Shown: piece by piece, positions 1,806-26,213 of the stretch
How positions within the stretch are numbered: the stretch's first letter is position 1
Layout of the letters: every line of letters begins with the position of its first letter
Source: an uncultured archaeon
GTDB taxonomy: Archaea; Iainarchaeota; Iainarchaeia; Iainarchaeales; DATDZZ01
Direction of reading: 5' to 3'
Assembly (NCBI GenBank): GCA_964373795.1
Contig: CAYJVY010000010.1
Coordinates: 17,710-49,709, forward strand
Length of the DNA stretch: 32,000 nucleotides
Position numbers and translations under genes: made by a program
Notes under the pieces: model-generated
Seen by the model: the letters and a program-made list of their open reading frames with translations, nothing else
The model's database searches: none
Told to the model about the DNA's origin: nothing

Positions 1806-2198
1806 ATGAGAGAAACTAGTTTACAATTAGTAACTAATAATCAAGATAATAATAAAGAATGTAGAATGAAAGGTAATGGTTATTGTCCAAAGCCACTCGA
1901 AAGAGTGGCTGTTTTTTTAATCAAAAAATGGACGCTAAGCATAATAGTAACAATTGGAAATTTTAATACTATTCGATTCAATGATTTGTTAAAAAGAATT
2001 GAAGGCATGACACAAAAAACTTTATCAGAAAGATTGCGAGAACTTGAAAAGCGCAATATTGTTGTGCGCCATGCTTTTTCTGAAAGGCCTCCAAGAGTTG
2101 AGTACTCCTTAACATCAAGTGGTCAGAAAATCATGAAAGCAGTTTTACCATTACTTAAACTAGCTGAATCAAATGCCTTACTAAATAAGGTGCAATGA
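1806..2198 (+). CDS. HxlR-family (DUF24) winged-helix transcriptional regulator
   Basis: AGGTGG lies upstream of ATG 1806. Motifs: CP...IKKWTLSIIV...RFNDLLKRIEGMTQKTLSERLRELEKRNIV...RPPRVEYSLTSSG. The conserved N-terminal Cys is typical of redox-sensing HxlR proteins. Confidence 0.85.
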   Translation: MRETSLQLVTNNQDNNKECRMKGNGYCPKPLERVAVFLIKKWTLSIIVTIGNFNTIRFNDLLKRIEGMTQKTLSERLRELEKRNIVVRHAFSERPPRVEYSLTSSGQKIMKAVLPLLKLAESNALLNKVQ

Positions 2199-5168: not shown

Positions 5169-5399
5169 ATGGCTTTGAAAACAGTATTGCTAGGCGCCTT
5201 GCTAGTAGTAATGGTTATAGTAGGATTGTTGCAAACAGTTCAAATACTTAACCTTAGCACTGCATTGAATTCAGGTGTTGGCTTGGTTACAGCAAAACCT
5301 GCTTCAATTAGTGTGGCTGGTGCAACAGCAAACAGTATAAAATCTACTGGTTCTGCAACTAGTTTGGATAACCTGCCTGGCATGGTTGGCGGATGTTGA
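5169..5399 (+). CDS. Small single-pass membrane protein ending in PGMVGGC, hypothetical
   Basis: AAGGAGGG at 5153-5160. 76 aa: an N-terminal TM helix (LLGALLVVMVIVGLL), a Ser/Ala/Thr/Gly-rich linker, and a terminal LPGMVGGC. Its stop codon overlaps the next gene start (ATGTTGA at 5393-5399). Confidence 0.6.
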   Translation: MALKTVLLGALLVVMVIVGLLQTVQILNLSTALNSGVGLVTAKPASISVAGATANSIKSTGSATSLDNLPGMVGGC

Positions 5400-6805
5400 A
5401 AATTTTTCGGGAAAACACAATGCAGAAGAATTTACTTATTAGTGGCGCATTAATAGCCTTGCTTATAATTGTTTTGTTTAACTCTTTGCAACTTACAGCT
5501 TTGGCTTCTCTAGCCAATGAAAAGACTGCAATAGCAAAAGAAAATTCGAGGCCTGGAAAAATTCAGTTAATAGAGTTGATTGTGCCATGCAGTGATTGCA
5601 TAGGCATTGATTCATTATTAGTTGATTTAAAAAAGCAAAACCTTGAAGTAGTTTCTGAAAAAAGGCTTGCCTCTAATTTGCCAGAGGCACAAAATTTAAT
5701 AAAAGAATTTGGTTTAACCAGGCTTCCAGCACTAATTGTTTTTGGTGAAACAACCAAGCAAAATCAGGTTAAAAGTTTTTTTGAAAAAAATGGTTTTAAA
5801 TTGAATGATTTAAATCAAGCGGTTTTTGAAACAAAAAAAGTGCCTTATTTTGATTTGAAAAATAATTCTGTTAGAGGAAGAGTATCAGTGGTTTCTTTGA
5901 CTGCAAAAGATTGCAGTAATTGTAGCTCTTTTGCAACGCTATTACCCTTGCTGAGAAACCGCGGAATAGTTTTTGATGAAGAAAAATTCTTGGAATTTAA
6001 TTCAAGTGAAGGAAAAGACTTTGTTCAAAAACATGGCTTGCAGAAAGTTCCAGCAATTTTTTTGTCAGAGAACATTCAAGAATACCCTGAAGTTTTTAAT
6101 GCATTAATTAATCAGCTTGGTTTCAAGCAAGGAAAAGGATATATTTTTCGTGAACCGCTTAGCGCGCCCTTTGTTGATGCTTTAAGTGGTGAAACAAAAG
6201 GATTAGTTAAAGCTATTTTTTTGGATGACTCTTCTTGCAATGATTGCTATGATGTGAATATGCATAAACAGATTTTTGACAGGTTTAAATTATTTTTAAA
6301 TGAAGAAGAAACAGTGGAAGTTTCTAGCGAGAAAGGGCAACAATTGATTAGTGATTACAATATTAGCAGAATTCCAACTGTGTTGCTTTCACCAGAAGCA
6401 AAAGAGTATCAAGAACTTGTGAATGTTTGGAGAGCTGTTGGAACAATTGAAGAGAATGATTGGTTTGTTTTTAGAGAGCCTAGTGCGTTATCTGGAGTTT
6501 ATATTGATTTGAATTTGAATTTAATTGTTAATCCAATACTTGTTCTTGGAGCAGAGTTTGAATTTCAGCCAAGCACAATTTCAGTTAAAAAAGGACAACT
6601 TGTTAAAATTACCTTTGTAAATGTTGGGCAAGCAGAGCATGATTTTGTAATTAATGAATTAAATATTAAAACAAAATTATTGAAACCTCAGGAAAGTGAA
6701 ACAATTGAATTCATTGCAGATAAAACCGGAGAGTTTTCTTTTTATTGTTCAGTGGAAGGCCATAAAGAACAGGGAATGAAAGGAACAATCATTATTTCGA
6801 AATAA
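5393..6805 (+). CDS. Membrane-anchored fusion of three thioredoxin-like CxxC modules and a C-terminal type-1 cupredoxin domain
   Basis: 470 aa with an N-terminal TM helix. Three modules each have a CxxC (CSDC, CSNC, CNDC) followed about 45-55 aa later by a cis-Pro-type strand (RLPALIVF, KVPAIFLS, RIPTVLLS). The C-terminus FVNVGQAEHDF ... FYCSVEGHKEQGMKG supplies the His/Cys/His/Met copper ligands. Alternative start at ATG 5420. Confidence 0.8.
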   Translation: MLKIFRENTMQKNLLISGALIALLIIVLFNSLQLTALASLANEKTAIAKENSRPGKIQLIELIVPCSDCIGIDSLLVDLKKQNLEVVSEKRLASNLPEAQNLIKEFGLTRLPALIVFGETTKQNQVKSFFEKNGFKLNDLNQAVFETKKVPYFDLKNNSVRGRVSVVSLTAKDCSNCSSFATLLPLLRNRGIVFDEEKFLEFNSSEGKDFVQKHGLQKVPAIFLSENIQEYPEVFNALINQLGFKQGKGYIFREPLSAPFVDALSGETKGLVKAIFLDDSSCNDCYDVNMHKQIFDRFKLFLNEEETVEVSSEKGQQLISDYNISRIPTVLLSPEAKEYQELVNVWRAVGTIEENDWFVFREPSALSGVYIDLNLNLIVNPILVLGAEFEFQPSTISVKKGQLVKITFVNVGQAEHDFVINELNIKTKLLKPQESETIEFIADKTGEFSFYCSVEGHKEQGMKGTIIISK

Positions 6806-6839: not shown

Positions 6840-7559
6840 TTGTTGGAAAAAGATAAGATTGTTCCAGCTATTTTTGGTTTTTTTTTAATAATTTTAATCA
6901 GTTTGTCTGTGTTTTTTGCATTACCTATGGTTTTTCCAAACAAAAGTAATTCTTCTGTTACATTTTCTTTTGCTGTTCTAAATTCAGATAATTTTTCTAA
7001 GAAGAATTTTACTGAATTTGATAGAAAGCTCGCTATCAAGTTAATGGATAAAGATGAAGATGGAAAATGTGATGCTTGCGGAATGAATGTAGAGTTGTGC
7101 ATGGATTCTGGACAAATAGAGTGTAACATGGTTCCTGGTGCTAAATTTGGAGTGCTTGGCTCTGCACACATCCATGCAAATTTTAAAGTTTTTTTGAATG
7201 GAAAAGAATTTGATTTTGGTCAACAAAAATATGCTGTGAAAAGCAGGTTTATGCATGTAGAAAATGATGTTCCAGAAGAGTTTGGAAAACTCTTACACAT
7301 TCATGCAACTGGCATGCCTTTGTGGCTGTTTTTTGAAAGCCTTGGAATGAAATTAAGCAAAGATTGTTTTGAATTGGATACTGGAGAAAATTTTTGCAGT
7401 AATTCAGATAATTCATTAAATTTTTATGTTAATGGTCAACCAAGTAATGAGTTTCAAGACTATGTCCCAAAAGACAAGGACAAGATTCTGATTAGTTTAT
7501 ATGGCAATGAAACAAATGACATAGGGAAACAATTAGAATCAATTACAAACTATTCTTAG
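6840..7559 (+). CDS. Membrane-anchored extracytoplasmic His/Cys-motif protein (paralog of 7564-8070), family not named
   Basis: 239 aa, TTG start. N-terminal TM helix. Cys4 cluster CDACG...C...C. Then HIHANFKVFLNGKE ... LHIHATG ... LFFESLG ... C...C ... FYVNGQ ... EFQDYVPKDKDKILI. Confidence 0.6.
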   Translation: MLEKDKIVPAIFGFFLIILISLSVFFALPMVFPNKSNSSVTFSFAVLNSDNFSKKNFTEFDRKLAIKLMDKDEDGKCDACGMNVELCMDSGQIECNMVPGAKFGVLGSAHIHANFKVFLNGKEFDFGQQKYAVKSRFMHVENDVPEEFGKLLHIHATGMPLWLFFESLGMKLSKDCFELDTGENFCSNSDNSLNFYVNGQPSNEFQDYVPKDKDKILISLYGNETNDIGKQLESITNYS

Positions 7560-12781: not shown

Positions 12782-12828
12782 ATTTATAATAATTAGTCTT
12801 ATAAGGGGAAACTATTAAAGTTTATTTT

Positions 12829-13245
12829 TTAATGTTTTTTGAATGTTTTGGCACAGTATTTACAACAAAAATTTGTTTTCCTTCCCTTAATTTTTTTTGT
12901 ATAGCGACTTTCAAAAACTTTACAACCGCAATGGACACAAACAGTCAATCTTGGAGAAATACTTAATTCAATTAACTCTCCAAATCTCGACAGAATTTTT
13001 TTAATAAACTTTTCTCCTTCTAAAGTTAATGAATAAACTTTTTTCTCTCTTTGCTTTTTTTCTTTTGAAACAATTAATTTATTTTTTTCAAGCAATGCAA
13101 GAAAAGGATATATTTGCCCCGGGGAAACTTTTTTCTCTGATTTTTCTGAAACTTTTTTAATTAATTCATATCCGTGCATAGATTTTGAGTTTAACAGCAT
13201 TAGAGCATAAAATTTAGTTAAATTGTCTATTTTTATTTTATCCAT
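12829..13245 (-). CDS. PadR-family winged-helix regulator fused to a C-terminal TRASH metal-binding domain
   Basis: 138 aa. PadR core: ALMLLNSKSMHGYELIKKV ... SPGQIYPFLALLEKNKLI ... KVYSLTLEGEKF. C-terminus: CVHCGC-x19-FCCKYCAKTF (TRASH: Cys pair ... C-x3-C). Divergent from copA. Confidence 0.8.
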   Translation of the reverse strand: MDKIKIDNLTKFYALMLLNSKSMHGYELIKKVSEKSEKKVSPGQIYPFLALLEKNKLIVSKEKKQREKKVYSLTLEGEKFIKKILSRFGELIELSISPRLTVCVHCGCKVFESRYTKKIKGRKTNFCCKYCAKTFKKH

Positions 13246-13286
13246 ATCATATTTTGATGCGAAAAGGTTTAAAAGAAGTTACATTT

Positions 13287-13300
13287 TATGATATATCATA
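13287..13300. promoter_or_regulatory. Perfect 14-bp palindrome TATGATATATCATA in the PadR-TRASH / copA divergent intergenic region
   Basis: Read directly. Related ATATCATAT / TATGATAT copies lie at 13246-13256 and 13302-13309. A TTTAAA TATA-like box at 13268-13273 is about 25 nt from the PadR ATG. Confidence 0.5.
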
Positions 13301-13590
13301 TTATGATATTATAAGTGTCACTTAAAAAATTAATGTGTATATTTAGAGGAAGTAATCCTATTGATTGTCATTAAAAAAAATAAAGTTGAAAAATTTAAAG
13401 TGCATTCTCTGGGCGGGCCAATTTAGAGGCGTTTAATTGACAAATGAATTAAATATAAAAGCATTGGATTGTGCAGTAATTGCTGCAGGATTAATTGCGT
13501 GGGTTTACAATTTTTCTTTGAAAAAATTTAGTTAGTTTTGAATTCATTAAATTTTTAAACAACAAAAGTACTGTATTAATGAGGTTTAAT

Positions 13591-16248
13591 ATGGCAAAAG
13601 ATCCAAATTGTGGAATGACTGTGGATGAAAAAAAAGCAAAGTTTGTTTCCAATAAAGGTGGAAAGAAAACTTATTTTTGTTCATTAAATTGTTTGAAGAC
13701 TTTCGAATCCAAACATGGTTCGAAAGCTTCTTCCGCAAAAACTACAAAAATGCCAGAAAAAATAGCGCTTAAAAATTCAAAAATTGAAGGCACTAATTCG
13801 AAACTTATTTCAATTACTGGAATGCATTGTGCTTCTTGTTCTCAAACAATTGAAAAAGCATTAACAAAACTGCCAGGAGTTGTTTCTGCTAATGTTAATT
13901 TTGCTTCTTCTAAAGCATTAGTGAAATACGATGCAAGTAAAGTTGGGGAAAAAGAATTTTTTTCCGCAGTTGAAAAATCAGGATATGGGGTAGTTAAAGA
14001 AGAATTTGGTGGAGAAGGAAAAGAGATTTTAGCAAAGATTGATATAATTGGAATGAGTTCACAACATTGTGTTGGAGTTGTAGAACAAACCCTGCATAAA
14101 TTACATGGATTAGACAATATAAAAGTTAATCTTGGAACACAAACAGCAGAATTCCTTTATAATAAAGAGAAAATTTCTTTGCAGGAAATAATTTCTGCAA
14201 TAAAGAATTCTGGATATGAGGCAAGAATTGCTTTGCCTGAAGATAAGGAAAAAATCGCTCGCGAAAAAGAAATTCAGGAATACAAATTCAAATTCGTGGT
14301 TTCTTTTTTGCTTTCTGCTCCTTTGATGATTTTCGCAATAGGCCCGGCAGTAGGAATTGTTTTGCCTGAATTTATTAAGCAAAACTTTTTAGCAATTCAA
14401 TTTCTTTTAGCAACTCCTGTAATTCTTATAGGTTACAAATTTTTCACAAACGGTTTCAGAGCTCTTTTCATTAACAGAATTCCAAACATGGATTCTTTGG
14501 TTGCATTAGGAGTAGGAGCCGCTTATGTTTGGAGTATTTTTTCTTCTCTGCAAATTCTTTCTGAAATTCCAGGATTTGGAGTGGACTCATTATATTATGA
14601 AATATCTGCATTTTTGTTGACATTCATCATTTTAGGAAAATATTTGGAAGCAGTTGCAAAAGGCAAAACTTCTGAAGCAATCAAAAAACTTTTAGGCTTG
14701 AAGCCAAAAACTGCTTTTGTTGAACGCGCAGGAAAAGAATTGGAAATTCAAATTGACGAGGTTCTAATAGGAGATATTGTAATAGTAAAACCTGGACAAA
14801 AAATTCCAGTTGATGGAACAGTTGTTTCTGGAGACAGTTATGTTGATGAATCAATGATTTCAGGAGAACCATTGCCTGTGCACAAAATTGTTGGCAGTAA
14901 AGTAATTGGTGCAACAATTAACAAACAAGGTTTTTTCAAATTTCGTGCAGAAAAAGTTGGCAGTGAAACAATGTTGGCTCACATTATTAGAATGGTTGAA
15001 GAAGCTCAAGGCTCTAAAGCTCCAATTCAAGAATTTGCTGACAGAATTTCTTCATGGTTTGTTCCAGTAGTTATTGCTTTAGCAATTATTTCTTCTCTTG
15101 CATGGCTTTTAGTTGGCCAGCCTTTTTTGTTTGTTTTACAAATATTTATTACTGTTTTAATTATTGCTTGTCCTTGTGCTTTAGGTTTAGCTACTCCTAC
15201 TGCTGTAATGGTTGGCACTGGTTTAGGAGCTCAAAATGGAATTTTATTCAAATCAGCTGCTTCTTTGCAGAAAGCCCATGAAGTTCAAACAATTGTTTTT
15301 GATAAGACTGGCACGCTTACAAAAGGCAAGCCAGAAGTAACAAATATTGTTTCAGTGAATGGAAAAAAAGATTTAGATGTTTTAAGTTTTGCAGCTATTG
15401 CTGAAAAAAATTCAGAGCATCCATTAGCTGAAGCAATTTTAAACAAAGCTAATTCTTTAAAGTTAAAAGTTGTTTCTCCAAAAAATTTTGAAGCAGTTTC
15501 AGGTAAAGGAGTTAATGCTTTTTTTAAGGGAACAAAAATTCTTGTAGGAAATAAAAAATTTTTTTTAGAGCAAAAAATTTCTTTTAAAGAACTTGAAGAA
15601 AAAATTTTTGCGCTGGAATTAGAAGCAAAAACAGTTGTATTAATTGCAGTTAATGGAAAGCTTTTAGGTGCAATAGCTATTGCTGATTCTTTAAAGGATT
15701 TCTCTAAAGAAGCTGTTCAAGAACTTCATAATTTAGGAAAAGAGATTGTAATGATTACTGGAGACAATAAGACTACTGCTGAAGCAATTGCTAAACAAGT
15801 AGGCATTGATTTTGTTTTAGCAGAGGTTTTACCCGAACAGAAAGCTCAAAAAGTTAAAGAACTTCAGTCTTCGGGAAAAAAGGTTGCATTTGTTGGAGAC
15901 GGAATTAACGATGCCCCTGCATTAGCTCAATCAGATGTTGGAATTGCAATTGGTTCTGGAACTGATATTGCAATTGAAGCAGGAGAAATTGTTTTAATTA
16001 AAAATGATTTAAGAGATGTTGTTACAGCAATTGATTTATCTGCTTACACTATTAGAAAGATTAAGCAAAACTTTTTTTGGGCATTTATTTACAATGTTGC
16101 TGGTCTTCCATTAGCTGCAGGAATTTTATATCCTTTAATTGGATGGCTTTTAAATCCAGTTATTGCTGGAATTGCAATGGCTTTTTCCTCTGTATCAGTT
16201 GTATCCAATACCTTGCTAATGAAGGGCTTTAAGCCTAGAATAAAGTGA
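13591..16248 (+). CDS. copA: Cu(I)-translocating P1B-type ATPase
   Basis: GAGG at 13581-13584 favours ATG 13591 over ATG 13579. N-terminal TRASH/YHS-like CGM-x20-FCSLNC. HMA 1 has GMHCASC; HMA 2 is degenerate (GMSSQHC). Also [44 protein letters not shown]. Confidence 0.95.
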
Positions 16249-16699: not shown

Positions 16700-16877
16700 T
16701 CATTTGTTCATTTTCTTGTCGTCAATAAATTCGTTTAACTCTGTTTGGGAATAATCAAGTGTTTTTGTGAAACCTGTTCCATCTTTTGTTAGTGGGTTTG
16801 TTATTTTTCCTTCTTCTAACTATTTTATTTGTTTGCCTGAGTCTTCTGCTACATTAATTGTTTTTTTCAAGTCGCCT
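16700..16877 (-). pseudogene. Orphan, decayed C-terminal cassette homologous to the pre-tip segment of the 1665-aa protein
   Basis: Minus-strand translation: GDLKKTINVAEDSGKQIK*LEEGKITNPLTKDGTGFTKTLDYSQTELNEFIDDKKMNK*. The first 18 residues are identical to the giant protein (GDLKKTINVAEDSGKQIKWLEEG). The Trp codon is TAG here (16820-16822). The sequence after LEEG is unrelated. There is no start codon. Confidence 0.75.
16807..16877. repeat. 71-nt near-identical direct repeat, copy A (partner 17999-18069)
   Basis: TTCCTTCTTCTAACTATTTTATTTGTTTGCCTGAGTCTTCTGCTACATTAATTGTTTTTTTCAAGTCGCCT compared with copy B: 2 mismatches, with 56 consecutive identical nt. Confidence 0.9.
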
Positions 16878-16897
16878 GATGTTGCACTAAATTGATA

Positions 16898-16955
16898 CTG
16901 CGAGGCTCGAAGAGCCCGCAGAGTTATTACAGGGTCATAGGGGCGGAGCCCCTAT
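16898..16955. other. Two adjacent GC-rich stem-loops in an AT-rich intergenic region
   Basis: Hairpin 1 (16898-16921): CTGCG(A)GGCTC-GAA-GAGCCCGCAG, 10 bp with one bulge. Hairpin 2 (16937-16955): ATAGGGG-CGGAG-CCCCTAT, 7 bp. Confidence 0.6.
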
Positions 16956-17038
16956 TGTCATTAGCCAATTGTTATTTTTAGGCCTGTTTGTATGCTTTGC
17001 TTGCTAGTTCTATTATTCCTGTTTTGGATATCAGTTAG

Positions 17039-17689
17039 TTAAAGATTATTAATTATTTTAAATATGTTTTGTTTGAACTCTTTTGGTAGTGTTTTAGCTT
17101 TATTTTCTATTGCTTTTAGGATTGCTTCCTTGACGTTTTTGTCTTTATCGTGAACAAGTTTTTCTGAGACTATTTTTTGTATTTGTGTTGGCAGGTTATT
17201 ATAATTCCAAATGATGCTGTATACAATAGTTGCCCTAGTCAGAGAATTTTTGTTGCCAGCAGCATCCGTAAAAATTTTTTGTATTTGTTTTGGTAAAATG
17301 TTGAAATTTTTTGCAATGATACCATATTTTATTGTTGGTGTTGTTTCTTCTGCTGTTTTTGGTTTTTCTAAAATTATTTTGCAAATTAAGTTGTTTATCT
17401 GTTTTTCTTTTAATGTTTCTTCGAAGGCTTTTTCATATAAATCTGAGATATATTCTGACCCTCCGTCTGTTTTTATGATTTTTTTTTGTGTAAATTTTTC
17501 AAAAAGGTTGTTGAAGTTGTTTTTATATTTTATATTGAATTTTTTGCATAGGTATTCAAAGGCGTTTTTGTATTCTTTTCCTTGATTATAGCTTGTTCCA
17601 AAATAATACCATATAGTTAAAAACAATTGTTCCTCGTAGTCCATTTCAAGGATTTTTTTTGTTGCTTTTTGTATTTCTAGTTCTTGCAT
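17039..17689 (-). CDS. Repeat-containing cytoplasmic protein, candidate immunity protein for the upstream C-terminal tip
   Basis: AAGGAG (forward CTCCTT at 17699-17704) lies 9 nt upstream of ATG 17689 and 8 nt after the giant gene stop; the track start at 17743 overlaps the giant gene. 216 aa with no signal peptide. Three HEAT-like repeats: ILPKQIQKIF, NLPTQIQKIV, TLPKEFKQNIF. Confidence 0.65.
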   Translation of the reverse strand: MQELEIQKATKKILEMDYEEQLFLTIWYYFGTSYNQGKEYKNAFEYLCKKFNIKYKNNFNNLFEKFTQKKIIKTDGGSEYISDLYEKAFEETLKEKQINNLICKIILEKPKTAEETTPTIKYGIIAKNFNILPKQIQKIFTDAAGNKNSLTRATIVYSIIWNYNNLPTQIQKIVSEKLVHDKDKNVKEAILKAIENKAKTLPKEFKQNIFKIINNL

Positions 17690-17711
17690 ATTTGTTTGCT
17701 CCTTAAATTTT

Positions 17712-20700
17712 TTATTTGCATTGGAAATTGTCATATGTTTCATATTTTGGAGGGTAAGAGGTTATTATACTTCCATCGCTTCCAACAATTGTTGCCATGA
17801 ATTTTGCTCCAATTTTTAGTAAATAGCACTCTTTTGGAGGTTTTCCGTCAATTGTTTTGCCTAGCAATTTTTTTCCAGGATTTTTAATTGACTCAAATAT
17901 TTTAGACTGAATTATTTCGTTGTCATTTAGCCCAATTTTTGCAAAATCTCCACTATCAACATGTTTTGTTTTTATGTGTTGCCAGCCCTTGTATTGGTTT
18001 CCTTCTTCTAGCCATTTTATTTGTTTGCCTGAGTCTTCTGCTACATTAATTGTTTTTTTCAAGTCGCCTCCTTTTTCTAGAACTGTTTCCATGTTTTTTA
18101 CTGGAACATTTTTTGTGTTCTTTAATCTATTTATTGCTTCGACTCCATCGTCTCCGTAATGCTTTAACAAATTCGGCAACGCATCAATTGTTTCTTTTTT
18201 TGCTCCTCTTTCGAATAGTATTCCTAGATTTTTTAATTCCTTTAACTGTGTTTTGTTAAACGTTCTAGTAATAGTACTTTTCACTCCTTTTGTTACTACT
18301 TCAAAAGTGATTTTTGCTTTTTTTGCGATTTTAACTAGATTTTCAACAGCATTTGCTATCTTGCTTAATTTGTACCATTTTTTTGCAGAATCTAAGACTC
18401 TGACTGTTTTTACACTAGCGATTCCAAAATCTACTAAAGGGCCATCAGCTGGAACTATTATTGCTATAACATTTCCAACACTTAAAAGTGTATCCACTAA
18501 TCCCCATATAGTCCATTCTCCTCTACACCAATCTCCAAAAGCAAATTCGCAAGCAATATTGAATCCAAGATCCGCAAAAGTCTTATCTGCGTTATCCTCT
18601 AATTCCAGTATTTCAACATCAATTGTTGATACAGTTCCATCTGGCAACAAATTATTTTCACTGCCATTAAGCACAGCAAAAGATGTTCCGCCAAATTGTT
18701 TGCTTAAATATTGTGTTCCATCCATTACTCCGTCTCCGTCAGAGTCTTTTTTTATAGGATTTGTTCGTGTAACAGTTGTTTCCTCTAAATCTGTTAAACC
18801 ATCGTTATCTGTGTCTTCTTTGAATGCATTTGTTCCATAAACTTTTAATTCATGATAGTCATCTAAACCATCATCATCTGAATCTTTTTTGTTTGGATCT
18901 GATCTTAATGCATAATAGTTTCCGCCGATTGGTAGAATTGTTACTTCTCCCATTTCAAATCCATCGCTTACTCCGTCTCCATCAGAATCATATTTTTGTG
19001 GATCTGTGTAAATGTATTTGAATGTTCCTGTTCGCATTCCACTTGATTCTTCATTATTTGTTAATCCATCTCCATCTGAATCTGGGGCTATTAAAATGCT
19101 TTTACAAGCAGAATTATCGAATTCGCTTGATTCTGCAATTACGTTGTCTGGATCTAGTACTAGGCAAACTCTTTCAACTCCGTATTCTGCATACCAAGTT
19201 ATTTGTGTTAGCCTCATGCTGTTGCCTGCAATGCTTGAAATTGTTGTTGAAGAAATCTCTGTTCCAGTAGAGTTATTTCTTCTAAATGAAACTTTTACAT
19301 TGTTTGCTGTTTCAGTGTCGTTGTTTCTTATATTTGCTTTTATTTTAATTGCATTGCCAGATAAGTATGTGTTTTGGAAATCAATTATTCCATTCCATGT
19401 TTTTCCATATGGATTGGAATTTGACAAAAAATAACTGCTAAAATGAGTTGTTTTTCCCCAGACGTATTTTTCTGTGGAGTTTATTCCTTGAATTTCTAAT
19501 GGTTTGAAAACCATTTTTTCTTCGTCTAAATAATAAAGCCTTAATTCGTTTGATTGTAAGCCTTTTAATTCTTCTTCTGTGTAATAGAATCTCATTTCTG
19601 CTTCATTGAATGAGTTATTACCTTTAATGTTAAATTTTGCTCCTTTGATTAAAGTAGTTGTATCAACTGTTGAAGGCAAATCAGTTGGATCTTCAACTAT
19701 CGAGATTTTTTTCCTCAAGTCTCCTTTTCCTGTGACAATTAGTTTTGTGTCTTGGCTTTGTGTTGGAATTTCTTGAATAAATATTTCTTGCCCATCTGGA
19801 ATTCCATCATTATCTGAATCATTTGTTAAAATATTTGTGCCAAAAGAGATTTCTGCTTCGTCATTTAATCCGTCTCCATCTGAATCTTTTGAAATTGGAT
19901 TTGAATGAAGTTCATTTATTTCTTTGTAGTCTGTTATTCCATCAAAATCAGAATCGTTTGTGTCAGGATTTGTTCCAAAATTAAATTCCTGTAATGCTGT
20001 CAAACCATCTCCATCCAAATCAATTAATGCATCACTTGAAATTGAATCTGTTGAAGTTTGATTTGGATTTGTTCCTTGAATAAATGCTTCAAAATAATCA
20101 TTTAATCCATCTCCATCCGAGTCAGCATTAAATGGATTTGTTTTTCCTTTGAATTCCTCTAAATTATTTAATTTGTCGCCATCAAAGTCTTCATCTGCAT
20201 CACTTACGCCATCAAAATCAGAGTCTTTTAGTAATGGGTTTGTAAGTAAAACATTTTTTTCATAGTCTTCTGGAAGAGTGTCCCCATCAAGCAAAAATGT
20301 TTTTTCCCATGTAGATTCATTTCCCGCAATATCTCTTGCAATAATTTTGTATTGGTTTTCTCCAAGGATAAACTTTGAATTGAATACAAACAAACCATTT
20401 TCATCAACATTTAAAGTTAAATTGTTTAACGTGACATAAATTCCTGGCTCTGTTTCTCCTATTATCAAGTACTCTGATTCCTCTATTGTTGTATCTGTAA
20501 TAGAGTCATTAATTGAAAGCATTGGAGGGGTATTGTCAATGATTATTTGTGTTGATTTTTCCGCTGTATTTCCTGCCTTGTCTTCTGCTGTTATTTTTAA
20601 TTCGTGTGAACCGTCTTCAAATTCTGTTGTGTTTAAATTGAATGGTAGTATTGAGTTTAAAAAATTTGAATCTAAAAATACTTGGAGTTGTTTCAAGTTT

Positions 20701-22709
20701 TTTTCTATTATGTTTGCGTTCACGGAAACAATTTGCCTTAAATGGCTTCCAGTGCTTGGATTAATGTTTTCAATTTTTGGAGGAGTGTTGTCAAATTCTA
20801 CTTGAGTTGTTTTTTCGTTTTCGTTCCCTGCTTTGTCGTTTGCATAATATTTTATTTCATGCAATCCGTCAGCGTACTTTGTAGAGTCAACTTGGTAAGG
20901 CAAATGATTTGATATCTGCAGACCATCTATGAAGAGTTTTGTTAAATCTAAGTACAAGTCGTAAGTGCTTCCAAGTACATCAAATACCCCTCGCAGAAAT
21001 GCTCCTGTCAAAGGATAAGTAATTTCAATGCTTGGAGGAGTTTTGTCTATTACGAAACTCACTTGCTTTGTTGCAGTGTTTCCTGCTTTATCTGTTGAAG
21101 AAACTAAAAGCAAGTGCTCGAATTCTGTTGAAATAATTTCTCCCAAAACATATGCTTGGTTGTTGAGTAAAAAAGTATTCGTGTCAGGGTTTAGTTCTAC
21201 TACATTAATTAATGGAAGCACGTTTGAATTGTAGAATTTTCCTTCTTCTATTCCTGTAATAAATATTTTTGGAAGAGTGTTGTCGACTGTTACTTGAATT
21301 GTTGTTGTGTTAGTGTTTCCTGCTAGGTCTTTTGCAAATAAAAGAATTTCATGTAATCCATCTGATGCTTCATTTAAAGTGTTCCAGTTAAAGGAATTAT
21401 TTTGAGTTTTTGCTTGGCCATCTATTCTCCATTCAAGAAAATTAAAGTATTTATCTGTTGCAGTGCCTGAAACACTAATGTTTTGTCTCAAGAAAGAATT
21501 GTGCAGAGGAGAAATTATTTTTACTTCTGGAGGAGTTTTATCTATTGCAAATTTGTATTCTAGAATCGATTCGTTTCCTGCTAAGTCTTTTGCTGTTGCG
21601 CGTAAAATATATTCGTTTTCATTAGAGACCTTGGATCCTGAAACAAATTCTGCAGAATTCAAAGTTGTTTGTGTTTCACTTAAATGCTTGTCTATGATTA
21701 AAATTTCAGGATTCAAATCATAATTGTAGTAAGAATTGTTTTCTACTCCTAAAAATTCAATTTTTGGAGGAGTAATGTCTAAAACTATTTCAATGCTTTC
21801 ACTTTTCCCTGTATTGCCGAATCTGTCAGTTGAAAAAACAGTAACTAAATTATTTCCATCTACTAATGGAACAGTTCCAGAATAAACCCCGCTAATCAAA
21901 GGGAACTCGTAATTTGAGTCATTCACTTGAACTACAACTGAATTAATTGTCTGCAATTGTACATCCCAAACAGTTCCAGAAACTGTTTGCATTTCTTGGT
22001 TTGTGTAAATGTTTGTTTGCGGAGATGAAATAAAAACTAAAGGAATTGTGAATTCATCTAGTAAGCTTAGGCCAGCAAATCCTTCAATCCAGGAGTTCTT
22101 GAAGTGTTCTATTGAATTAGGCGAGTTACCTATGTTCAACTGGTGTTGTGCCTTGTCATAGCTTTCTTTTGCTTTCTGTAAATGGTTTGAAGCCTGCAGG
22201 AAAACGTTTTCATCTTCTATTTCTGGTAGAACCTTTTCAATTACTTCAATCAAGTTTTTGGAAATATTTTGATCTGCTTGTACAAGCCTACTTATTGCAA
22301 ACAATAGTTTGTTGTTATCCAGATTAGAGCTCTCCCTATTGTAAAGAGTTCTTATGAAATTTCCTGCTTTTTTTTCGAAAACAAAAACATTTGCATCCAA
22401 AATCAAGTCTTGCGTAATCCAGAATTCTGGTTTAAGGCTTGCCTCGACATTTGAATCTGCTTGCAAAAGCTTGTCAAGATCGTCTTCAACTGCTTCTGGA
22501 ATCAGTTCCTGTAAAAAACTTCTTGCTTGATTTTTCAACTCAAAAGGAGTCAAGTTTTCTTGTGTAAAAACCAATTCTGTGTCATTCAAATTATTCTGTG
22601 CATTCCCGGCTGCAAAAGCGCTGGAGAAGAATACAGTTATGAATAGCAAAACACAAATGCTTTGCCAAAACTTTTTTTCCACACGCATAAATATCATCTT
22701 TCTATCCAA
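17712..22709 (-). CDS. Giant secreted/anchored surface protein: Ig-like repeat array, TSP3-like Ca-binding repeats, CARDB-like domain, pre-toxin-like segment and short variable C-terminal tip (polymorphic-toxin-like)
   Basis: 1665 aa with an N-terminal hydrophobic signal (ICVLLFITVFFSSAFA). At least six repeats of about 95 aa, of the form (I/V)DKTPP ... DGLHE ... (A/T)KD(L/K)AGN ... DNTPP. Two blocks of D-x-D-x-DG-x-x-D repeats (DSDGDGLND, DSDFDGITD, DTDNDGLTD). ANIRNNDTETANNVKVSF looks CARDB-like. Hydrophobic WGLVDTLLSVGNVIAIIVPADGPLVDFG. The last 96 aa start at GNQYKGWQHIKTKH. Confidence 0.85.
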   Translation of the reverse strand: MDRKMIFMRVEKKFWQSICVLLFITVFFSSAFAAGNAQNNLNDTELVFTQENLTPFELKNQARSFLQELIPEAVEDDLDKLLQADSNVEASLKPEFWITQDLILDANVFVFEKKAGNFIRTLYNRESSNLDNNKLLFAISRLVQADQNISKNLIEVIEKVLPEIEDENVFLQASNHLQKAKESYDKAQHQLNIGNSPNSIEHFKNSWIEGFAGLSLLDEFTIPLVFISSPQTNIYTNQEMQTVSGTVWDVQLQTINSVVVQVNDSNYEFPLISGVYSGTVPLVDGNNLVTVFSTDRFGNTGKSESIEIVLDITPPKIEFLGVENNSYYNYDLNPEILIIDKHLSETQTTLNSAEFVSGSKVSNENEYILRATAKDLAGNESILEYKFAIDKTPPEVKIISPLHNSFLRQNISVSGTATDKYFNFLEWRIDGQAKTQNNSFNWNTLNEASDGLHEILLFAKDLAGNTNTTTIQVTVDNTLPKIFITGIEEGKFYNSNVLPLINVVELNPDTNTFLLNNQAYVLGEIISTEFEHLLLVSSTDKAGNTATKQVSFVIDKTPPSIEITYPLTGAFLRGVFDVLGSTYDLYLDLTKLFIDGLQISNHLPYQVDSTKYADGLHEIKYYANDKAGNENEKTTQVEFDNTPPKIENINPSTGSHLRQIVSVNANIIEKNLKQLQVFLDSNFLNSILPFNLNTTEFEDGSHELKITAEDKAGNTAEKSTQIIIDNTPPMLSINDSITDTTIEESEYLIIGETEPGIYVTLNNLTLNVDENGLFVFNSKFILGENQYKIIARDIAGNESTWEKTFLLDGDTLPEDYEKNVLLTNPLLKDSDFDGVSDADEDFDGDKLNNLEEFKGKTNPFNADSDGDGLNDYFEAFIQGTNPNQTSTDSISSDALIDLDGDGLTALQEFNFGTNPDTNDSDFDGITDYKEINELHSNPISKDSDGDGLNDEAEISFGTNILTNDSDNDGIPDGQEIFIQEIPTQSQDTKLIVTGKGDLRKKISIVEDPTDLPSTVDTTTLIKGAKFNIKGNNSFNEAEMRFYYTEEELKGLQSNELRLYYLDEEKMVFKPLEIQGINSTEKYVWGKTTHFSSYFLSNSNPYGKTWNGIIDFQNTYLSGNAIKIKANIRNNDTETANNVKVSFRRNNSTGTEISSTTISSIAGNSMRLTQITWYAEYGVERVCLVLDPDNVIAESSEFDNSACKSILIAPDSDGDGLTNNEESSGMRTGTFKYIYTDPQKYDSDGDGVSDGFEMGEVTILPIGGNYYALRSDPNKKDSDDDGLDDYHELKVYGTNAFKEDTDNDGLTDLEETTVTRTNPIKKDSDGDGVMDGTQYLSKQFGGTSFAVLNGSENNLLPDGTVSTIDVEILELEDNADKTFADLGFNIACEFAFGDWCRGEWTIWGLVDTLLSVGNVIAIIVPADGPLVDFGIASVKTVRVLDSAKKWYKLSKIANAVENLVKIAKKAKITFEVVTKGVKSTITRTFNKTQLKELKNLGILFERGAKKETIDALPNLLKHYGDDGVEAINRLKNTKNVPVKNMETVLEKGGDLKKTINVAEDSGKQIKWLEEGNQYKGWQHIKTKHVDSGDFAKIGLNDNEIIQSKIFESIKNPGKKLLGKTIDGKPPKECYLLKIGAKFMATIVGSDGSIITSYPPKYETYDNFQCK
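17999..18069. repeat. 71-nt near-identical direct repeat, copy B (partner 16807-16877)
   Basis: Lies inside the giant gene and encodes GDLKKTINVAEDSGKQIKWLEEG, immediately before the 96-aa C-terminal tip. Confidence 0.9.
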
Positions 22710-23938
22710 ATATCTGATTCGCTAACTGTAAGATTTGGCTTTGGTACAATGCACGTATTGCCCGAACATCCATAAGAGCAGTTTTCTACAGATTGATCGT
22801 TAATATAGTAAGAACTGCCTTCAGAGCAATAAACGCCGTAACTTGAACTGCATGTATAGTCGTGATATAATTGTTTTTTTCTTAACTGTGAGCCAGAACA
22901 ATAGAATTCAAAAGAGTCAGCATAGTTTTTGTTGTCACAGTTTTCAATTGTTTTTGTCTCTGTTGAATTGCTTGAAGTACAGCTTGCAGAAGAGCATCCA
23001 GGAGTAGTAATTGTTCTGCTTTGAATAATGTTGTCATTAGAACAATAGTTATTGCTCCAATTTCCATAAGTAGTGTCTCCACAATCTTTTTGTTTTACTT
23101 TTTGTGTTTGGTTTAAACAAGAAGCACTAGTAGTTGAAGGATTCAAACAATATGATTCAGCATAGTCTCTGTAAACATCTCCGTCATAGCAGTAATTGTT
23201 TCCTGTGTATCCTGTTGTTCCACAGTCAGATGCTTTAGTGCAGGCAAAGGTTTTACATTGTCCACTTGAACAGTACTGGTTTGTTCCACAGGATTGATAT
23301 AATTCTGATTCTGTTGAATTGTTGGAATAACAGTTTCCGCTTGAACAGCCTTTTAGTGTTACACTTCTTTGCCTATAAACATTGTTGTCATTACATGTGT
23401 AACTCCAAGACCCATAAGAATTGTCTCCGCATTCTTGTTTTTTGTCTCCCCAGTCTCCACAGGAATTCTTCCAGTAAACGTCATTGCTTAAACAAGCATG
23501 AGTAAAATTTGCAGTGCAGACTTGTGGAATGAATTCAACATATAAATTCCATGTTCCAGATCCACTATATCTTTTGATTTGAAAGTGGTAGTAACCTGTT
23601 GTAGAAATGTTGAATTGAACTGTTTCGTTTGCACTGCCAGTGGTTCCAGATCCAACTTGGCCTGAAATACAGTTTTTATAAATATATAAATCAAAGTCTG
23701 CTCCGCTTGGGCCATAAAGATATGCTTTATATGTTCCTGACTTGTCTAAGTAGACATCAACCCAATCTTCTTCATCTAGGATTGGGTAAAGCGACTCTGA
23801 TGCCCAATTGTTTACATTCATTTTTTTTCCAGGGCCATCACAGTGATCCCATATAAAATGAGTAGCATTAACACTTGGCAGTAGTAAAAGTGTTATTAGT
23901 AAAATTAGTAAAAATCCAAGGATTTTTGTTTGAGTCAT
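22694..23938 (-). CDS. Secreted Cys-rich repeat protein with an N-terminal PPC-like (pre-peptidase C-terminal-like) beta domain
   Basis: 414 aa. Signal peptide LGFLLILLITLLLLPSVNA. DWVDVYLDKSGTYKAYLYGPSGADFDLYIY ... YHFQIKRYSGSGTWNLYV looks PPC-like. Repeated Cys modules follow (CGDNSYGSWSYTCNDNNVYRQRSVTLKGCSSGNC and CGDTTYGNWSNNYCSNDNIIQSRTITTPGCSSASC), with many N-x-S/T sequons. Overlaps the giant gene start by 16 nt. Confidence 0.7.
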   Translation of the reverse strand: MTQTKILGFLLILLITLLLLPSVNATHFIWDHCDGPGKKMNVNNWASESLYPILDEEDWVDVYLDKSGTYKAYLYGPSGADFDLYIYKNCISGQVGSGTTGSANETVQFNISTTGYYHFQIKRYSGSGTWNLYVEFIPQVCTANFTHACLSNDVYWKNSCGDWGDKKQECGDNSYGSWSYTCNDNNVYRQRSVTLKGCSSGNCYSNNSTESELYQSCGTNQYCSSGQCKTFACTKASDCGTTGYTGNNYCYDGDVYRDYAESYCLNPSTTSASCLNQTQKVKQKDCGDTTYGNWSNNYCSNDNIIQSRTITTPGCSSASCTSSNSTETKTIENCDNKNYADSFEFYCSGSQLRKKQLYHDYTCSSSYGVYCSEGSSYYINDQSVENCSYGCSGNTCIVPKPNLTVSESDIWIER

Positions 23939-23951
23939 TTTATTGCCTCAA

Positions 23952-24611
23952 CTATTTTTTCTCTTTCTTTGATTGTTCTGATTGAATTGGTAAGCCTAGT
24001 TGTTTTGCTAGCTCTTTTAATTCTTCTTCAGTCATTTTTGATAGTTCTTCAGGGCCATAAGTTTTTCCACCTATGCTGTAAACTTCTGTTGGTTTGTCGT
24101 CTCCAGGCATTGTTTTCTTTATTTCTTCAAATTCTTCTCTTTGTGTTTCTTCTGCCAGTTTTTGTTGTTCTTCTTTTTTCATGGAAGTTATTTCTGAAAC
24201 TTGATAAATTTTTCCTCCAACTTCAACTGGCTTGTTTTCATCCAACCATTTCTGTACAAGAATTTCTTGAGAAGTAGGTTTGGTCATTCCATCAACCAAT
24301 ACTTGAATATCTTCTTCAGAGACTGTGTCTTGTTCTGCAAGTATTTGTTTTAATTTTTTTTGTTGGTTTTCAGTAAGTTTTTCTTTTGCATCAGGGTCTT
24401 CTGCAATTTTTTTTTCAATTATTTCTTCAACTTTTTTTTCTTCTTCTGTTGAAAGAGTTTTTGTTTTTACTGTAGAATAGCCTGGAGCGCCTTGCAATTG
24501 CTTGTCAACCAATGAAGCTAAACTAGTTTGGTTAACACATCCTGAAATAAAAATAGTTACCAAAATTAATGCAATAGCTGTCTTAATTACTCCCATTGAA
24601 TTCCCCCTCAT
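23952..24611 (-). CDS. Lipobox-anchored Glu/Lys-rich protein, hypothetical
   Basis: 219 aa. Hydrophobic leader ending in FISGC (lipobox-like). The remainder is highly charged and predicted coiled/extended (EEEKKVEEIIEKK, KKEEQQKLAEETQREEFEE). First gene of the co-directional locus. Confidence 0.6.
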   Translation of the reverse strand: MRGNSMGVIKTAIALILVTIFISGCVNQTSLASLVDKQLQGAPGYSTVKTKTLSTEEEKKVEEIIEKKIAEDPDAKEKLTENQQKKLKQILAEQDTVSEEDIQVLVDGMTKPTSQEILVQKWLDENKPVEVGGKIYQVSEITSMKKEEQQKLAEETQREEFEEIKKTMPGDDKPTEVYSIGGKTYGPEELSKMTEEELKELAKQLGLPIQSEQSKKEKK

Positions 24612-24628
24612 ATTTGTTCTGTGGGGAT

Positions 24629-24772
24629 CTTAATTTAATTATTTGCCGTGCTGTTAAGACCTCTGGAGAAGCATTTGTTAATGATTTTAATGTTAAAACC
24701 CATTCAAACGAGGTTAGAAAATCTATTGGAATGGTTTTTCAAGACCCTTCATTGGATGAAGAGTTAACTGCT
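24629..24772 (+). pseudogene. Fragment of an ABC-transporter ATP-binding protein
   Basis: The translation KTSGEAFVNDFNVKTHSNEVRKSIGMVFQDPSLDEELTA matches the segment between Walker A and the Q-loop of ABC ATPases (xPTSGxxxxxGxD...RxxIGxVFQxxxLxxxLT). Walker A, the signature motif and Walker B are all absent. Confidence 0.7.
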
Positions 24773-24861
24773 TTTTCTCTTGCAACTTTTTTAATTATAG
24801 TTAAATTGTTTGAAAAACTTTGAATTTTTTCTAGAGCGCAATTAGACTTAGTTTTGGCTTT

Positions 24862-25392: not shown

Positions 25393-25629
25393 TCAATTAA
25401 AAATAAAATATAACAAGGGGACAATTTAAAATAAAACCCTTATCTCGGGTGAAAGCGCCCCCTGTTTTGTTTTTCATTTTCTATTTATCAGGTTTTCACC
25501 TGCAATTAATACAATTAAATTTAATTTAATTCTGCGCAATTAACTTTTCAAACCAGTTTTCAAGGTAAACTTTGAAAACAAAAAAGTTTTTATTTTTCAG
25601 AAAAAGATTTTATTTGAATAAGGAATTAA

Positions 25630-25701
25630 TGCCCAGGGAGAGACTCGAACTCTCGACCGCCCGATTATCAGTCGGGTGCTCAACCACTAAGCTACCCGGG
25701 C
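25630..25701 (-). tRNA. tRNA-Ile (anticodon GAU)
   Basis: Reverse complement: GCCCGGG TA GCTT AGTGGTT GAGC A CCCGA CTGATAA TCGGG CGGTC GAGAG TTCGAGT CTCTC CCTGGGC A. A full cloverleaf can be drawn by hand. No encoded CCA. Confidence 0.9.
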
Positions 25702-25705
25702 ACTA

Positions 25706-25730
25706 AGCTTTTCTTTGGAAAAGAAAAGCT
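25706..25730. other. Perfect 11-bp hairpin abutting the 5' end of tRNA-Ile
   Basis: AGCTTTTCTTT-GGA-AAAGAAAAGCT, 4 nt from tRNA position 1 on the leader side. Confidence 0.6.
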
Positions 25731-25834
25731 GGCAAAAGAAAGCACAAAAAGTATTAACAAAAGATTTTTCGGAAACTTTTAAAGCATTAAAATTTAATTA
25801 GCTTGCACTTCCTTTGAATATAAACATATTATCT

Positions 25835-25858
25835 TACTTAAATTAATAAATTTAATTA
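25835..25858 (+). repeat. 24-nt AT-rich promoter-like element, copy 1 (partner 26087-26110)
   Basis: TACTTAAATTAATAAATTTAATTA vs TACTTAGATTAATAAATTTAATTA, one mismatch. Confidence 0.7.
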
Positions 25859-26086
25859 TAAGTTTGTTAAAGGCTTATTTTAATTCAGTGAATCTTTTTG
25901 GATGAGTTAACTCTAATACTTGTTTTTTCTTCCTTCAATCATGTCAACTGCATGTTTTGCTGTCGTATACCCTACTGTTGTTTCTTGATCGCACATTGCC
26001 ATTGCAGTGAAAACGTTTTTTTGAAATTCCCCTGCTATTGGAAGCCAATCTTTTGTTTTTCTTGGATTTTAGCATTATATTTAAAT

Positions 26087-26110
26087 TACTTAGATTAATA
26101 AATTTAATTA
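26087..26110 (+). promoter_or_regulatory. 24-nt AT-rich element, copy 2; probable BRE/TATA promoter of tRNA-Gln
   Basis: Ends 31 nt upstream of tRNA-Gln position 1, the expected position for an archaeal TATA box. Confidence 0.55.
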
Positions 26111-26140
26111 CAACTCTAGTTTTTATTCGTCCTTGTTTTC

Positions 26141-26213
26141 AGCCCGATCGTCTAGTGGCCAAGGATACGGGCCTTTGGAGCCTGTGACGTGAGTTCGACT
26201 CTCACTCGGGCTA
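26141..26213 (+). tRNA. tRNA-Gln (anticodon UUG)
   Basis: Acceptor AGCCCGA / TCGGGCT with the A1-U72 pair typical of archaeal tRNA-Gln. Anticodon arm CGGGC CTTTGGA GCCTG. T arm GTGAG TTCGACT CTCAC. Followed by a T7 run. Confidence 0.9.

Follow-up and report, generated by a model that had tools for sequence, protein, structure and literature searches.

A predicted polymorphic-toxin locus in an archaeon: a giant secreted protein ending in a CdiA-CT(BWH57)-type BECR-fold domain, and the small gene that follows it

What does a giant secreted protein of an archaeon carry at its C-terminus, and is the small gene directly behind it the corresponding antidote? The question is raised by a minus-strand operon in a 32,000-nucleotide (nt) stretch of contig CAYJVY010000010.1 (hereafter, the window). 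The operon comprises four co-directional open reading frames (ORFs), namely 24611-23952 (219 amino acids, aa), 23938-22694 (414 aa), 22709-17712 (the giant), and 17689-17039 (216 aa), with a gap of 13 nt between the 219-aa and 414-aa genes, an overlap between the 414-aa and giant genes, and a gap of 22 nt between the giant stop codon and the ATG of the 216-aa gene. A first-pass annotation made from the letters of the window had described these genes as tightly packed, and had proposed a toxin-delivery protein with a candidate immunity gene and an orphan cassette behind it; all four ORFs were indeed found at those coordinates, as was the AAGGAG that it had noticed, a Shine-Dalgarno-like sequence of the 216-aa gene beginning 8 nt past the giant stop. 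The host is an archaeon, because the GatE encoded in the window scores 783 bits against a cut-off of 456 bits; a geranylgeranyl reductase family protein is also encoded, and the G+C content of the window is ~30%.

Overall, the locus is probably an archaeal Sec-dependent polymorphic-toxin locus, and the evidence starts at the end of the giant. Comparison of its last 119 aa with the sequences of the Protein Data Bank (PDB) using phmmer returned a single significant chain, 7M5F_C (E 1.5e-4), with the alignment beginning at TINVAEDSGKQIKWLEEG, upstream of the toxin junction that had been claimed. A 27-sequence family profile reached the same chain at E 5e-22, and the toxin domain and 7M5F_C were found to be 26% identical over 100 aligned columns. 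An AlphaFold2 (AF2) model of the domain was built with 21 relatives and showed a mean predicted local distance difference test score (pLDDT) of 83.8. In a Foldseek search with this model—a check that had been proposed for both the tip and the 216-aa protein, and that was informative for the tip but returned nothing below E 0.3 for the 216-aa partner—7m5f_C was the first and sole significant match (E 6e-5, prob 1.0, template modeling [TM] score 0.52-0.56), followed by colicin D tRNase chains at prob 0.75-0.85. 7M5F is the CdiA toxin domain of Serratia marcescens BWH57, described as a BECR-fold RNase domain and bound by an immunity protein (PMC8616854). The C-terminal domain of the giant is thus homologous to the CdiA-CT(BWH57) BECR-fold toxin domain, and is predicted on that basis to be an RNase-type toxin.

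These results change the earlier picture of the tip in three respects. The tip had been described as 96 aa long, whereas the toxin domain comprises ~125 aa, starting near aa 1540 and ending 9 residues ahead of the stop codon. It had also been described as matching no family that could be named, which no longer holds given its profile match to the CdiA-CT(BWH57)/BECR RNases. Curated libraries do not recover this relationship: nothing was found for the window tip in Pfam, NCBIfam, or PADLOC, and no PBECR1, EndoU_bacteria, or colicin D match was obtained even at E 10; some other members of the family do reach Pfam PBECR1 or EndoU_bacteria, weakly, at E 1e-5 to 1e-8. Finally, the sequence LEEG had been taken as the junction between pre-toxin segment and toxin. 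The most conserved columns of the family are W-L-E-x-G and the first His and, because of this, LEEG is placed inside the domain, in a hairpin before the His-bearing helix. A W/F-L-E-x-G ... H-I-x-x-x-H motif is common to the window domain and 7M5F, with both His residues kept; across the family, the first His is nearly invariant and the second is kept in most members (≥90% in one family alignment). The candidate active-site residues of 7M5F are H47, E51, H52, and R89 (PMC8616854), and the corresponding positions in the window are occupied by H1578, K1582, H1583, and the Lys of a GKPP loop (1665-aa numbering).

A collapse of conservation directly after LEEG had been proposed as a check on the reading, and was not seen. 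The giant has an end-to-end homologue in a 1756-aa protein of Methanoperedens sp. MnB_21 (locus L022; 32% identity over 1690 aa), and it aligns at 38% identity over 1081 aa with an incomplete protein from Ca. M. nitroreducens (L012). Identity to these Methanoperedens homologues, taken in windows of 50 residues, was 42% for aa 1551-1600, 30-32% for aa 1601-1650, and 20-63% elsewhere. Since the windows past LEEG (30-42%) fall within the range found elsewhere, the tip is as conserved as the rest of the protein relative to L022 and L012, which are distant homologues rather than close orthologues.

The behavior expected of polymorphic toxins was borne out for the family in other archaea. An exhaustive HMMER protein search with the last 335 aa of the giant returned 35 proteins, in most of which the matched stretch (query 205-325) lies at the extreme end of proteins of 94-1496 aa; with this single 335-aa C-terminus as query, no close relatives were found in genome contigs or metagenome contigs. 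Species-representative genomes were also scanned for loci with a degenerate DNA pattern encoding WLE[EKDN]G-x4-GW-x-HI. Fourteen loci were obtained, 2 of them bacterial (one weak) and 12 archaeal: Methanoperedens (3), Methanosarcina (2), Methanolobus (2), Natronorubrum, Halocatena, a Halobacteriales archaeon, a Micrarchaeota metagenome-assembled genome, and GW2011_AR10. Together with metagenomic loci recruited by protein identity, the pattern loci gave a family set of 27 domain occurrences at 21 non-redundant loci. In all 27 occurrences (21 loci), the domain ends ≤22 residues from the stop codon, with N-terminal delivery regions as varied as Ig-like plus TSP3 repeats, PPC plus Cys-rich repeats, a NosD beta-helix, BNR, and LamG. 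The family is mostly archaeal, being found mainly in Methanoperedens, Methanosarcinales, and haloarchaea, with two DPANN-type genomes. Furthermore, the same pre-toxin module is followed by divergent tips, that of P0004 being 14-29% identical to the other toxin domains compared. The Methanoperedens giants of L022 and L012 are 58-92% identical along their length and 98% identical over the last 100 aa, and their downstream 184-aa genes are almost identical; this step in identity at the toxin boundary fits a recent exchange of a tip/immunity unit.

Small genes follow these toxins, and the type of small gene tracks the toxin subclade. Members of a ~150-aa family (24-33% identical to one another, E down to 1e-18) are encoded 3′ of the toxin in 12 occurrences, 11 of the 12 genes starting about -12 to +33 nt from the toxin stop codon and one lying 582 nt past it. 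Present at ≥10 archaeal loci, the ~150-aa family qualifies as a candidate for a new immunity family. Behind other toxin subclades lies a ~180-aa family (~170-185 aa, with a shared C-terminal LNPxL motif), the neighbors of which include the main Methanoperedens genes and EndoU-like variant tips. Neither family has a match in Pfam or the PDB. In addition, orphan or shortened toxin modules were found 3′ of the main gene at L012, L013, L014, L019, and L022, sharing with the 3′ part of the main gene blocks of 72-300 nt at 72-93% identity; full orphan modules occur at L012, L013, L019, and L022, and an orphan toxin together with a ~150-aa gene is seen among the relatives. A separate group of ~270-290-aa paralogues with an N-terminal winged-helix-like segment is encoded one or two genes past the toxins at two loci that are unrelated to each other (L003:11124-11951 and 12820-13635; L010:9802-10680).

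The architecture of the giant itself agrees with the modular secreted protein that had been envisaged: a signal, an Ig-like stalk, two TSP3 blocks, a hydrophobic pre-toxin segment, and a C-terminal toxin domain were all found (Table 1). Its start is most likely ATG 22697, because this codon overlaps the upstream TGA as ATGA and the resulting 1661-aa product is P0002 of the public protein collection (NCBI record); the 1665-aa product with a 16-nt overlap (TTG 22709), as given by the first-pass annotation, is less likely. The N-terminus is a hydrophobic predicted signal ending in AFA, with AG following, and hydropathy shows, besides this signal, a single internal hydrophobic segment near aa 1400-1433. 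The DNA of the stalk contains repeat families spaced 255/495 nt. The pre-toxin module is common to the proteins P0003, P0004, P0006, P0007, and P0010 and to L012 and L022, and belongs to no curated family in Pfam. PT-TG was considered for this segment from a resemblance by eye; no Pfam match to it was found to E 10 in the C-terminal 362 aa of the window protein, or to E 0.1 in ten relatives.

The candidate immunity protein is the 216-aa product of the last gene of the operon. The earlier description of a cytoplasmic repeat protein of no nameable family was upheld: it contains no hydrophobic segment, its DNA has internal repeats 102 nt apart (~34 aa) in the C-terminal half, and no homologue or family match was found. 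Indeed, a search of 5.8 billion clusters, using a word index that reaches relatives sharing short exact words, returned only the protein itself. The only family hit, rve (E 0.0026, 18 bits against a 32.6-bit cut-off), is noise, and the repeats, although HEAT-like by eye, match no HEAT model in Pfam. The single-sequence AF2 model (pLDDT 59) is confident for the first ~100 aa only, with low-confidence helical hairpins, and its top non-significant Foldseek matches are the winged-helix regulators PrfA, MarR, and PadR. No fold was assigned, because the model is weak and the matches are non-significant. Toxins that are paired with the ~150-aa family are 30-57% identical among themselves and 35-39% identical to that of the window; judged by the toxin alone, a ~150-aa gene would therefore be expected here. 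However, the family is absent from the whole 32 kb, as judged by tblastn and hidden Markov model (HMM) searches, and the 216-aa protein is related neither to it (hhalign probability 0.6%) nor to the ~180-aa family (0.1%), the latter having been compared by profile with the window's partner only. The case for immunity is thus one of position—the 22-nt gap with its own Shine-Dalgarno-like sequence, the cytoplasmic product, and the location inside a repeat-bracketed segment. Of the earlier claim, the placement (co-directional and close behind the giant gene) stands. The 216-aa protein is the most likely candidate for the toxin's immunity protein, an assignment that we make tentatively.

The repeats that bracket this segment, R1 and R2, have their own bearing on the origin of the tip. 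R2 matches R1 over 72 nt at 97% identity with two mismatches, and has sharp edges and unrelated flanks; one mismatch is a TGG-to-TAG change at 16821-16823, which introduces an in-frame stop codon, and the other is synonymous. A decayed copy behind the candidate immunity gene, as had been claimed, is therefore real, but it does not derive from the segment just before the tip: it lies within the N-terminal beta-hairpin of the toxin domain, and the toxin HMM aligns to the orphan fragment at domain positions 10-29 only. R2 is followed by a tail of 35 codons (KITNPL...KKMNK) and a stop codon, and neither the tail nor the orphan peptide, with the stop codon read as Trp, has relatives in protein searches. 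With a GNAT gene beginning 48 nt past the tail, the space is too small to hold a former toxin core or an orphan immunity gene. Accordingly, what had been called an orphan cassette reduces to a 72-nt stop-bearing fragment with a tail. Together, R1 and R2 bracket a 1.19-kb segment containing the toxin core, the 216-aa gene, and a 161-nt spacer. Two hairpins, TAGGGGC-TCC-GCCCCTA and CTGCGGGCTC-TTC-GAGCCTCGCAG, stand out in this spacer, which is otherwise ~29% G+C; they match nothing in Rfam, were not called as terminators by pattern, and occur only once in the window, and they might represent a terminator, a site of recombination, or a small RNA. The R1/R2 arrangement fits the exchange of a toxin-core/immunity cassette through recombination within the conserved N-terminal part of the toxin domain, of which the repeats would be the scar; the fuller duplicates in Methanoperedens and Methanolobus support this reading.

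The junction of partner, hairpins, and R2 was seen in a second assembly, given that Logan contig L001 (run ERR3478686) is 100% identical to the window over 18043-16848 and starts and ends inside the two repeat copies. The end of L001 can also be joined to its own start, which fits a true repeat and would also be in keeping with a toxin-core/partner segment that exists in circular or tandem form (1.19 kb).

Compared with known systems, the locus resembles CdiA-CT/CdiI of BWH57 (7M5F) in that a very large surface protein ends in the toxin domain and a small gene follows. The resemblance does not extend to the delivery apparatus: the giant and its neighbors lack Pfam CdiB and two-partner-secretion (TPS) domains and FHA repeats; no VENN precedes the toxin, the sole VENN being at aa 322 in the stalk, >1200 aa upstream; export is predicted to rely on a Sec signal peptide, and the organism has no outer membrane; and, unlike CdiA-CT, the giant has no N-terminal cytoplasm-entry domain of that type. 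The 216-aa helical protein has no similarity to any PDB chain, CdiI(BWH57) among them. A CdiB/CdiA two-partner-secretion system is thus excluded by the absence of CdiB/TPS/FHA matches in Pfam, the absence of a pre-toxin VENN, and the archaeal host. An Rhs/YD-repeat toxin was also considered; the giant has no RHS match in Pfam, no DPxG[LW], and no YD motif. With the orphan CT cassettes of cdiA and rhs loci, the window shares a near-identical 3′ coding block repeated past the gene in the immunity position and carrying a different tail, but its block lies inside the toxin domain, bears a stop codon, has a 35-codon tail, and is accompanied by no orphan immunity gene.

A parallel is also found in the archaeal polymorphic toxins predicted previously, with which the locus shares a Sec-type secreted multidomain protein, a C-terminal BECR nuclease domain, a small downstream gene, and orphan modules in relatives (PMC3482391, PMC6393860). 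Colicin D-type and barnase-type BECR tips are on record for euryarchaea and have also been reported from archaeal "dark matter" islands (PMC3482391, PMC6393860). The locus is thus new as a member, whereas BECR-tipped polymorphic toxins in archaea had already been predicted (PMC3482391, PMC6393860). It differs in that the BWH57-like subfamily and the two downstream families of the relatives have no curated model, and in that the DUF4157 protease, a signature of the surveyed archaeal systems, is not found at the window locus. The parts without a curated family model in the libraries searched are the pre-toxin module, the two neighbor families of the relatives, and the singleton 216-aa partner. 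The tip shares the BECR fold with colicin D tRNase, PBECR1, and EndoU_bacteria, although its catalytic constellation differs from that of colicin D. Most immunity superfamilies have been reported to be absent from archaea (Zhang et al. 2012; PMC3482391), and among polymorphic-toxin immunity proteins there are types built of helical repeats, for example Imm-HEAT (PMC3482391). In architecture, the giant also recalls the hypervariable Ig-domain module of Thermococcales, in which a large secreted Ig-domain protein is likewise accompanied by downstream genes that vary (PMC8416519); the function of that module is reportedly left between conflict, innate immunity, and self/non-self recognition. Unlike that module, the window giant has a recognizable toxin domain as its tip.

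If the locus acts as a polymorphic-toxin system, the giant would be exported via Sec and displayed at the cell surface, and contact with another cell would lead to delivery of the C-terminal domain, cleavage of RNA, and arrest of the target, which might be a sibling, a competitor, or a host. The hydrophobic pre-toxin segment could conceivably aid delivery as a translocation device, while the 216-aa protein would bind and neutralize the toxin in the producer and its sibling cells. The toxin-core/immunity cassette would have been swapped by recombination, with the older 3′ end displaced and left as the stop-interrupted stub.

Several points weigh against this reading. We know of no established activity for any member of the toxin-domain family, and of no route by which such a toxin would cross an archaeal envelope. 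In the window domain, the candidate catalytic E51 is replaced by K1582, and relative to the full-length Methanoperedens homologues the tip varies no more than the stalk does. Neither a release or processing motif nor a protease was found at the locus, and the pre-toxin module has no PT-TG match. The 216-aa partner has no homologue in PDB sequences, Pfam, NCBIfam, PADLOC, or the cluster search; it is unrelated to both immunity-like families, despite the closeness of the window toxin to the toxins paired with the ~150-aa family; and its confident N-terminal half faintly resembles winged-helix proteins (E>0.3). The orphan tail (35 aa) is too short and dissimilar to be called an old toxin, and no orphan immunity gene was found at the locus. 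In addition, the RNase activity of 7M5F is itself inferred from its fold, with its active-site residues being candidates only (PMC8616854).

Some of these points could be accommodated if the giant were mainly an adhesin or a surface-layer-associated attachment protein, mediating cell-cell or symbiont-host contact without antagonism, with the BECR-like domain being inactive or a binding module. Its Ig-like, CARDB, and TSP3 repeats, which make up ~80% of the protein, are typical of adhesins, and the Lys in place of E51, the limited variability of the tip, and the failure to find a recognizable immunity family or processing site would all be in keeping with such a role. However, the first His is nearly invariant and the second is kept in most family members, the domain recurs at the extreme C-terminus of unrelated scaffolds together with small conserved genes and orphan modules—a pattern known for toxins and not for adhesins—and the solved homologue is a contact-dependent inhibition toxin bound by an immunity protein; we regard the attachment role as improbable. 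Even less probable, to the point of being rejected, is that the 72-nt duplicate is a metagenome assembly artefact. The contig is 49.7 kb long and comes from an apparently uncultured organism, the proteins of which turn up elsewhere only in run-level assemblies of sequencing data, and short repeats are places where assemblers mis-join. R1 and R2 nevertheless carry two differences and are each flanked by unique sequence on either side, analogous partial duplicates occur in related genomes, and the independent Logan assembly of ERR3478686 runs from R1 across toxin core, partner, and hairpins into R2 at 100% identity, breaking inside the shared 30-mer at both ends.

More serious is the alternative that the toxin is real and the 216-aa gene is not its immunity gene, the rearrangement behind the 72-nt duplication having removed or displaced a cognate ~150-aa or ~180-aa gene and the 216-aa protein being a passenger, for example a winged-helix regulator with helical repeats. 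This is possible, if on the doubtful side. Related toxins are paired with the ~150-aa family in its 12 occurrences and with the ~180-aa family in others, the former family is absent from the 32 kb, and the partner resembles neither; no homologue of the partner turned up in the searches, the fold matches that rank highest for it, although non-significant, are winged helix-turn-helix (wHTH) regulators, and L003 and L010 carry wHTH-like ~270-290-aa genes near their toxins, not as the adjacent small gene. On the other hand, the 216-aa gene lies 22 nt past the toxin stop codon with its own AAGGAG, is co-directional, and encodes a cytoplasmic product; it is enclosed with the toxin core in the repeat-bracketed segment, as a toxin/immunity cassette would be; immunity proteins are notoriously diverse and include the helical repeats of Imm-HEAT (PMC3482391); and the search for a cognate gene covered only the 32-kb window of the genome.

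The reading of the locus as a polymorphic-toxin system may be carried further, to a low-GC, possibly DPANN-type archaeon that uses a Sec-exported "toxin on a stick," in which the pre-toxin module would carry a BWH57-type RNase over the envelope of another archaeon, with no need of a bacterial secretion machine, and a helical-repeat protein of a kind not seen before would confer immunity; in this full form the proposal is speculative and, on balance, unlikely. Since the full-length architecture is common to the window and Methanoperedens, action between lineages (symbiont-host or competitor), and not only among siblings, would be possible. If the proposal were true, new archaeal translocation and immunity families would be represented by the pre-toxin module together with downstream proteins of three types (~150 aa, ~180 aa, and the 216-aa orphan). 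We know of no experimental test of a Sec-dependent polymorphic toxin in archaea, and the locus would make a compact subject for one, with a ~125-aa domain whose bacterial homologue has a solved structure, two obvious point mutants, and one candidate antidote gene. Protection by the 216-aa protein would indicate a new immunity fold, and a lack of protection a toxin that has lost its cognate immunity gene. The finding would be unsurprising to a specialist, yet it is clean and experimentally tractable, and the relatives define a toxin family of mainly archaeal distribution, bring in two candidate immunity families that lack annotation, and point to a conserved pre-toxin module that is a possible translocation device.

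Table 1. Features of the toxin locus in the window and of the small downstream genes at related loci (positions within the window unless preceded by a locus name or given in aa of the giant).
Feature	Position	Strand	Basis or remark
Giant toxin-delivery protein, 1661 aa	17712..22697	-	ATG 22697; 1665 aa if TTG 22709
Ig-like repeat stalk, ~aa 222-800	20310..22046	-	Pfam Big_13 7e-25, Glucodextran_B 8e-22, Big_3_3, HYR
TSP3 calcium-binding repeats, block 1, ~aa 826-975	19785..20234	-	Pfam TSP3_bac 1e-19, 4 stretches; DNA repeats
CARDB domain between TSP3 blocks	aa 1116-1200		Pfam
TSP3 repeats, block 2, ~aa 1208-1330	18720..19088	-	Pfam, DNA repeats
Pre-toxin module, ~aa 1377-1539	18093..18581	-	Shared with relatives; hydrophobic segment 18411-18512
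C-terminal toxin domain, predicted BECR-fold RNase, CdiA-CT(BWH57) family, ~aa 1540-1665 (~125 aa)	17715..18092	-	phmmer, profile, AF2, Foldseek
Repeat copy R1, encodes GDLKKTINVAEDSGKQIKWLEEG, N-terminal beta-hairpin of toxin domain	17998..18069	-	DNA repeat search, AF2 model
216-aa cytoplasmic all-helical repeat protein, candidate immunity protein by position	17039..17689	-	ORF, hydropathy, AF2
Two G+C-rich perfect hairpins between partner gene and R2	16898..16954	-	Fold z-score -3.1
Orphan fragment: R2 (16806-16877) and 35-codon tail to TGA 16701-16703	16701..16877	-	DNA repeat search
414-aa secreted Cys-rich protein with weak PPC domain	22694..23938	-	ORF, Pfam PPC E 0.005
219-aa E/K-rich predicted lipoprotein, first gene of the operon	23952..24611	-	Composition, hydrophobicity
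~150-aa family genes	L003:10502-10954, L005:8204-8671, L007:7355-7810, L009:2580-3047; also L012, L013, L014, L015, L019, L022
~180-aa family genes	L012:3542-4093, L022 ~1255-1806 (-), L017:5088-5642, L023, L013, L020:3960-4511

Two accessory genes precede the giant, and the descriptions given to their products, an E/K-rich lipobox protein and a Cys-rich secreted protein, were both confirmed. The 219-aa protein has 29% E+K, one N-terminal hydrophobic segment, and, following it, its sole Cys in ISGC; it has no family match in curated libraries and no homologue in any related locus fetched, and its place in the system is suggested by operon position alone. The 414-aa protein has 28 Cys residues and an N-terminal signal segment. 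BLAST searches with the latter protein matched the interior of the toxin-bearing P0030 (38% over 129 aa, E 1e-17) and the interiors of the toxin-bearing P0011, P0024, and P0012; a further match, at 44% identity over 74 aa, was to PPC modules in the L024 toxin. Its PPC/Cys-repeat modules recur N-terminally in archaeal toxin proteins, namely P0030 (L010), P0011 (L005), P0024, P0012, and a GW2011_AR10 protein. Because these modules are fused N-terminal to the same pre-toxin/toxin module in relatives, the 414-aa protein can be linked to the toxin system.

The gene upstream of the giant has a similar end in the window (PNLTVSESDIWIER, 22694-22740) and in Methanoperedens (PDLSITSIDIFFEKVI, L022 ~7087-7140). 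The two proteins are not alignable outside these tails, which resemble the first strand of a CARDB-like domain.

Farther out, a 75-aa ORF on the plus strand (24596-24820), opposite the upstream spacer of the operon, has an ABC_tran match (Pfam E 0.006, profile positions 29-77 only); it looks like a fragment of an ABC-transporter ATPase, a sign that the upstream edge of the locus may have been rearranged in the past. Just past it, tRNA-Ile and tRNA-Gln are encoded at 25629-26213. A copper-handling neighborhood unrelated to the toxin locus occupies 5393-6805 and 13579-16248 of the window; it includes a 470-aa protein with thioredoxin-like and cupredoxin domains, and an 889-aa ORF that, judged by eye only, looks like a heavy-metal-translocating P-type ATPase.

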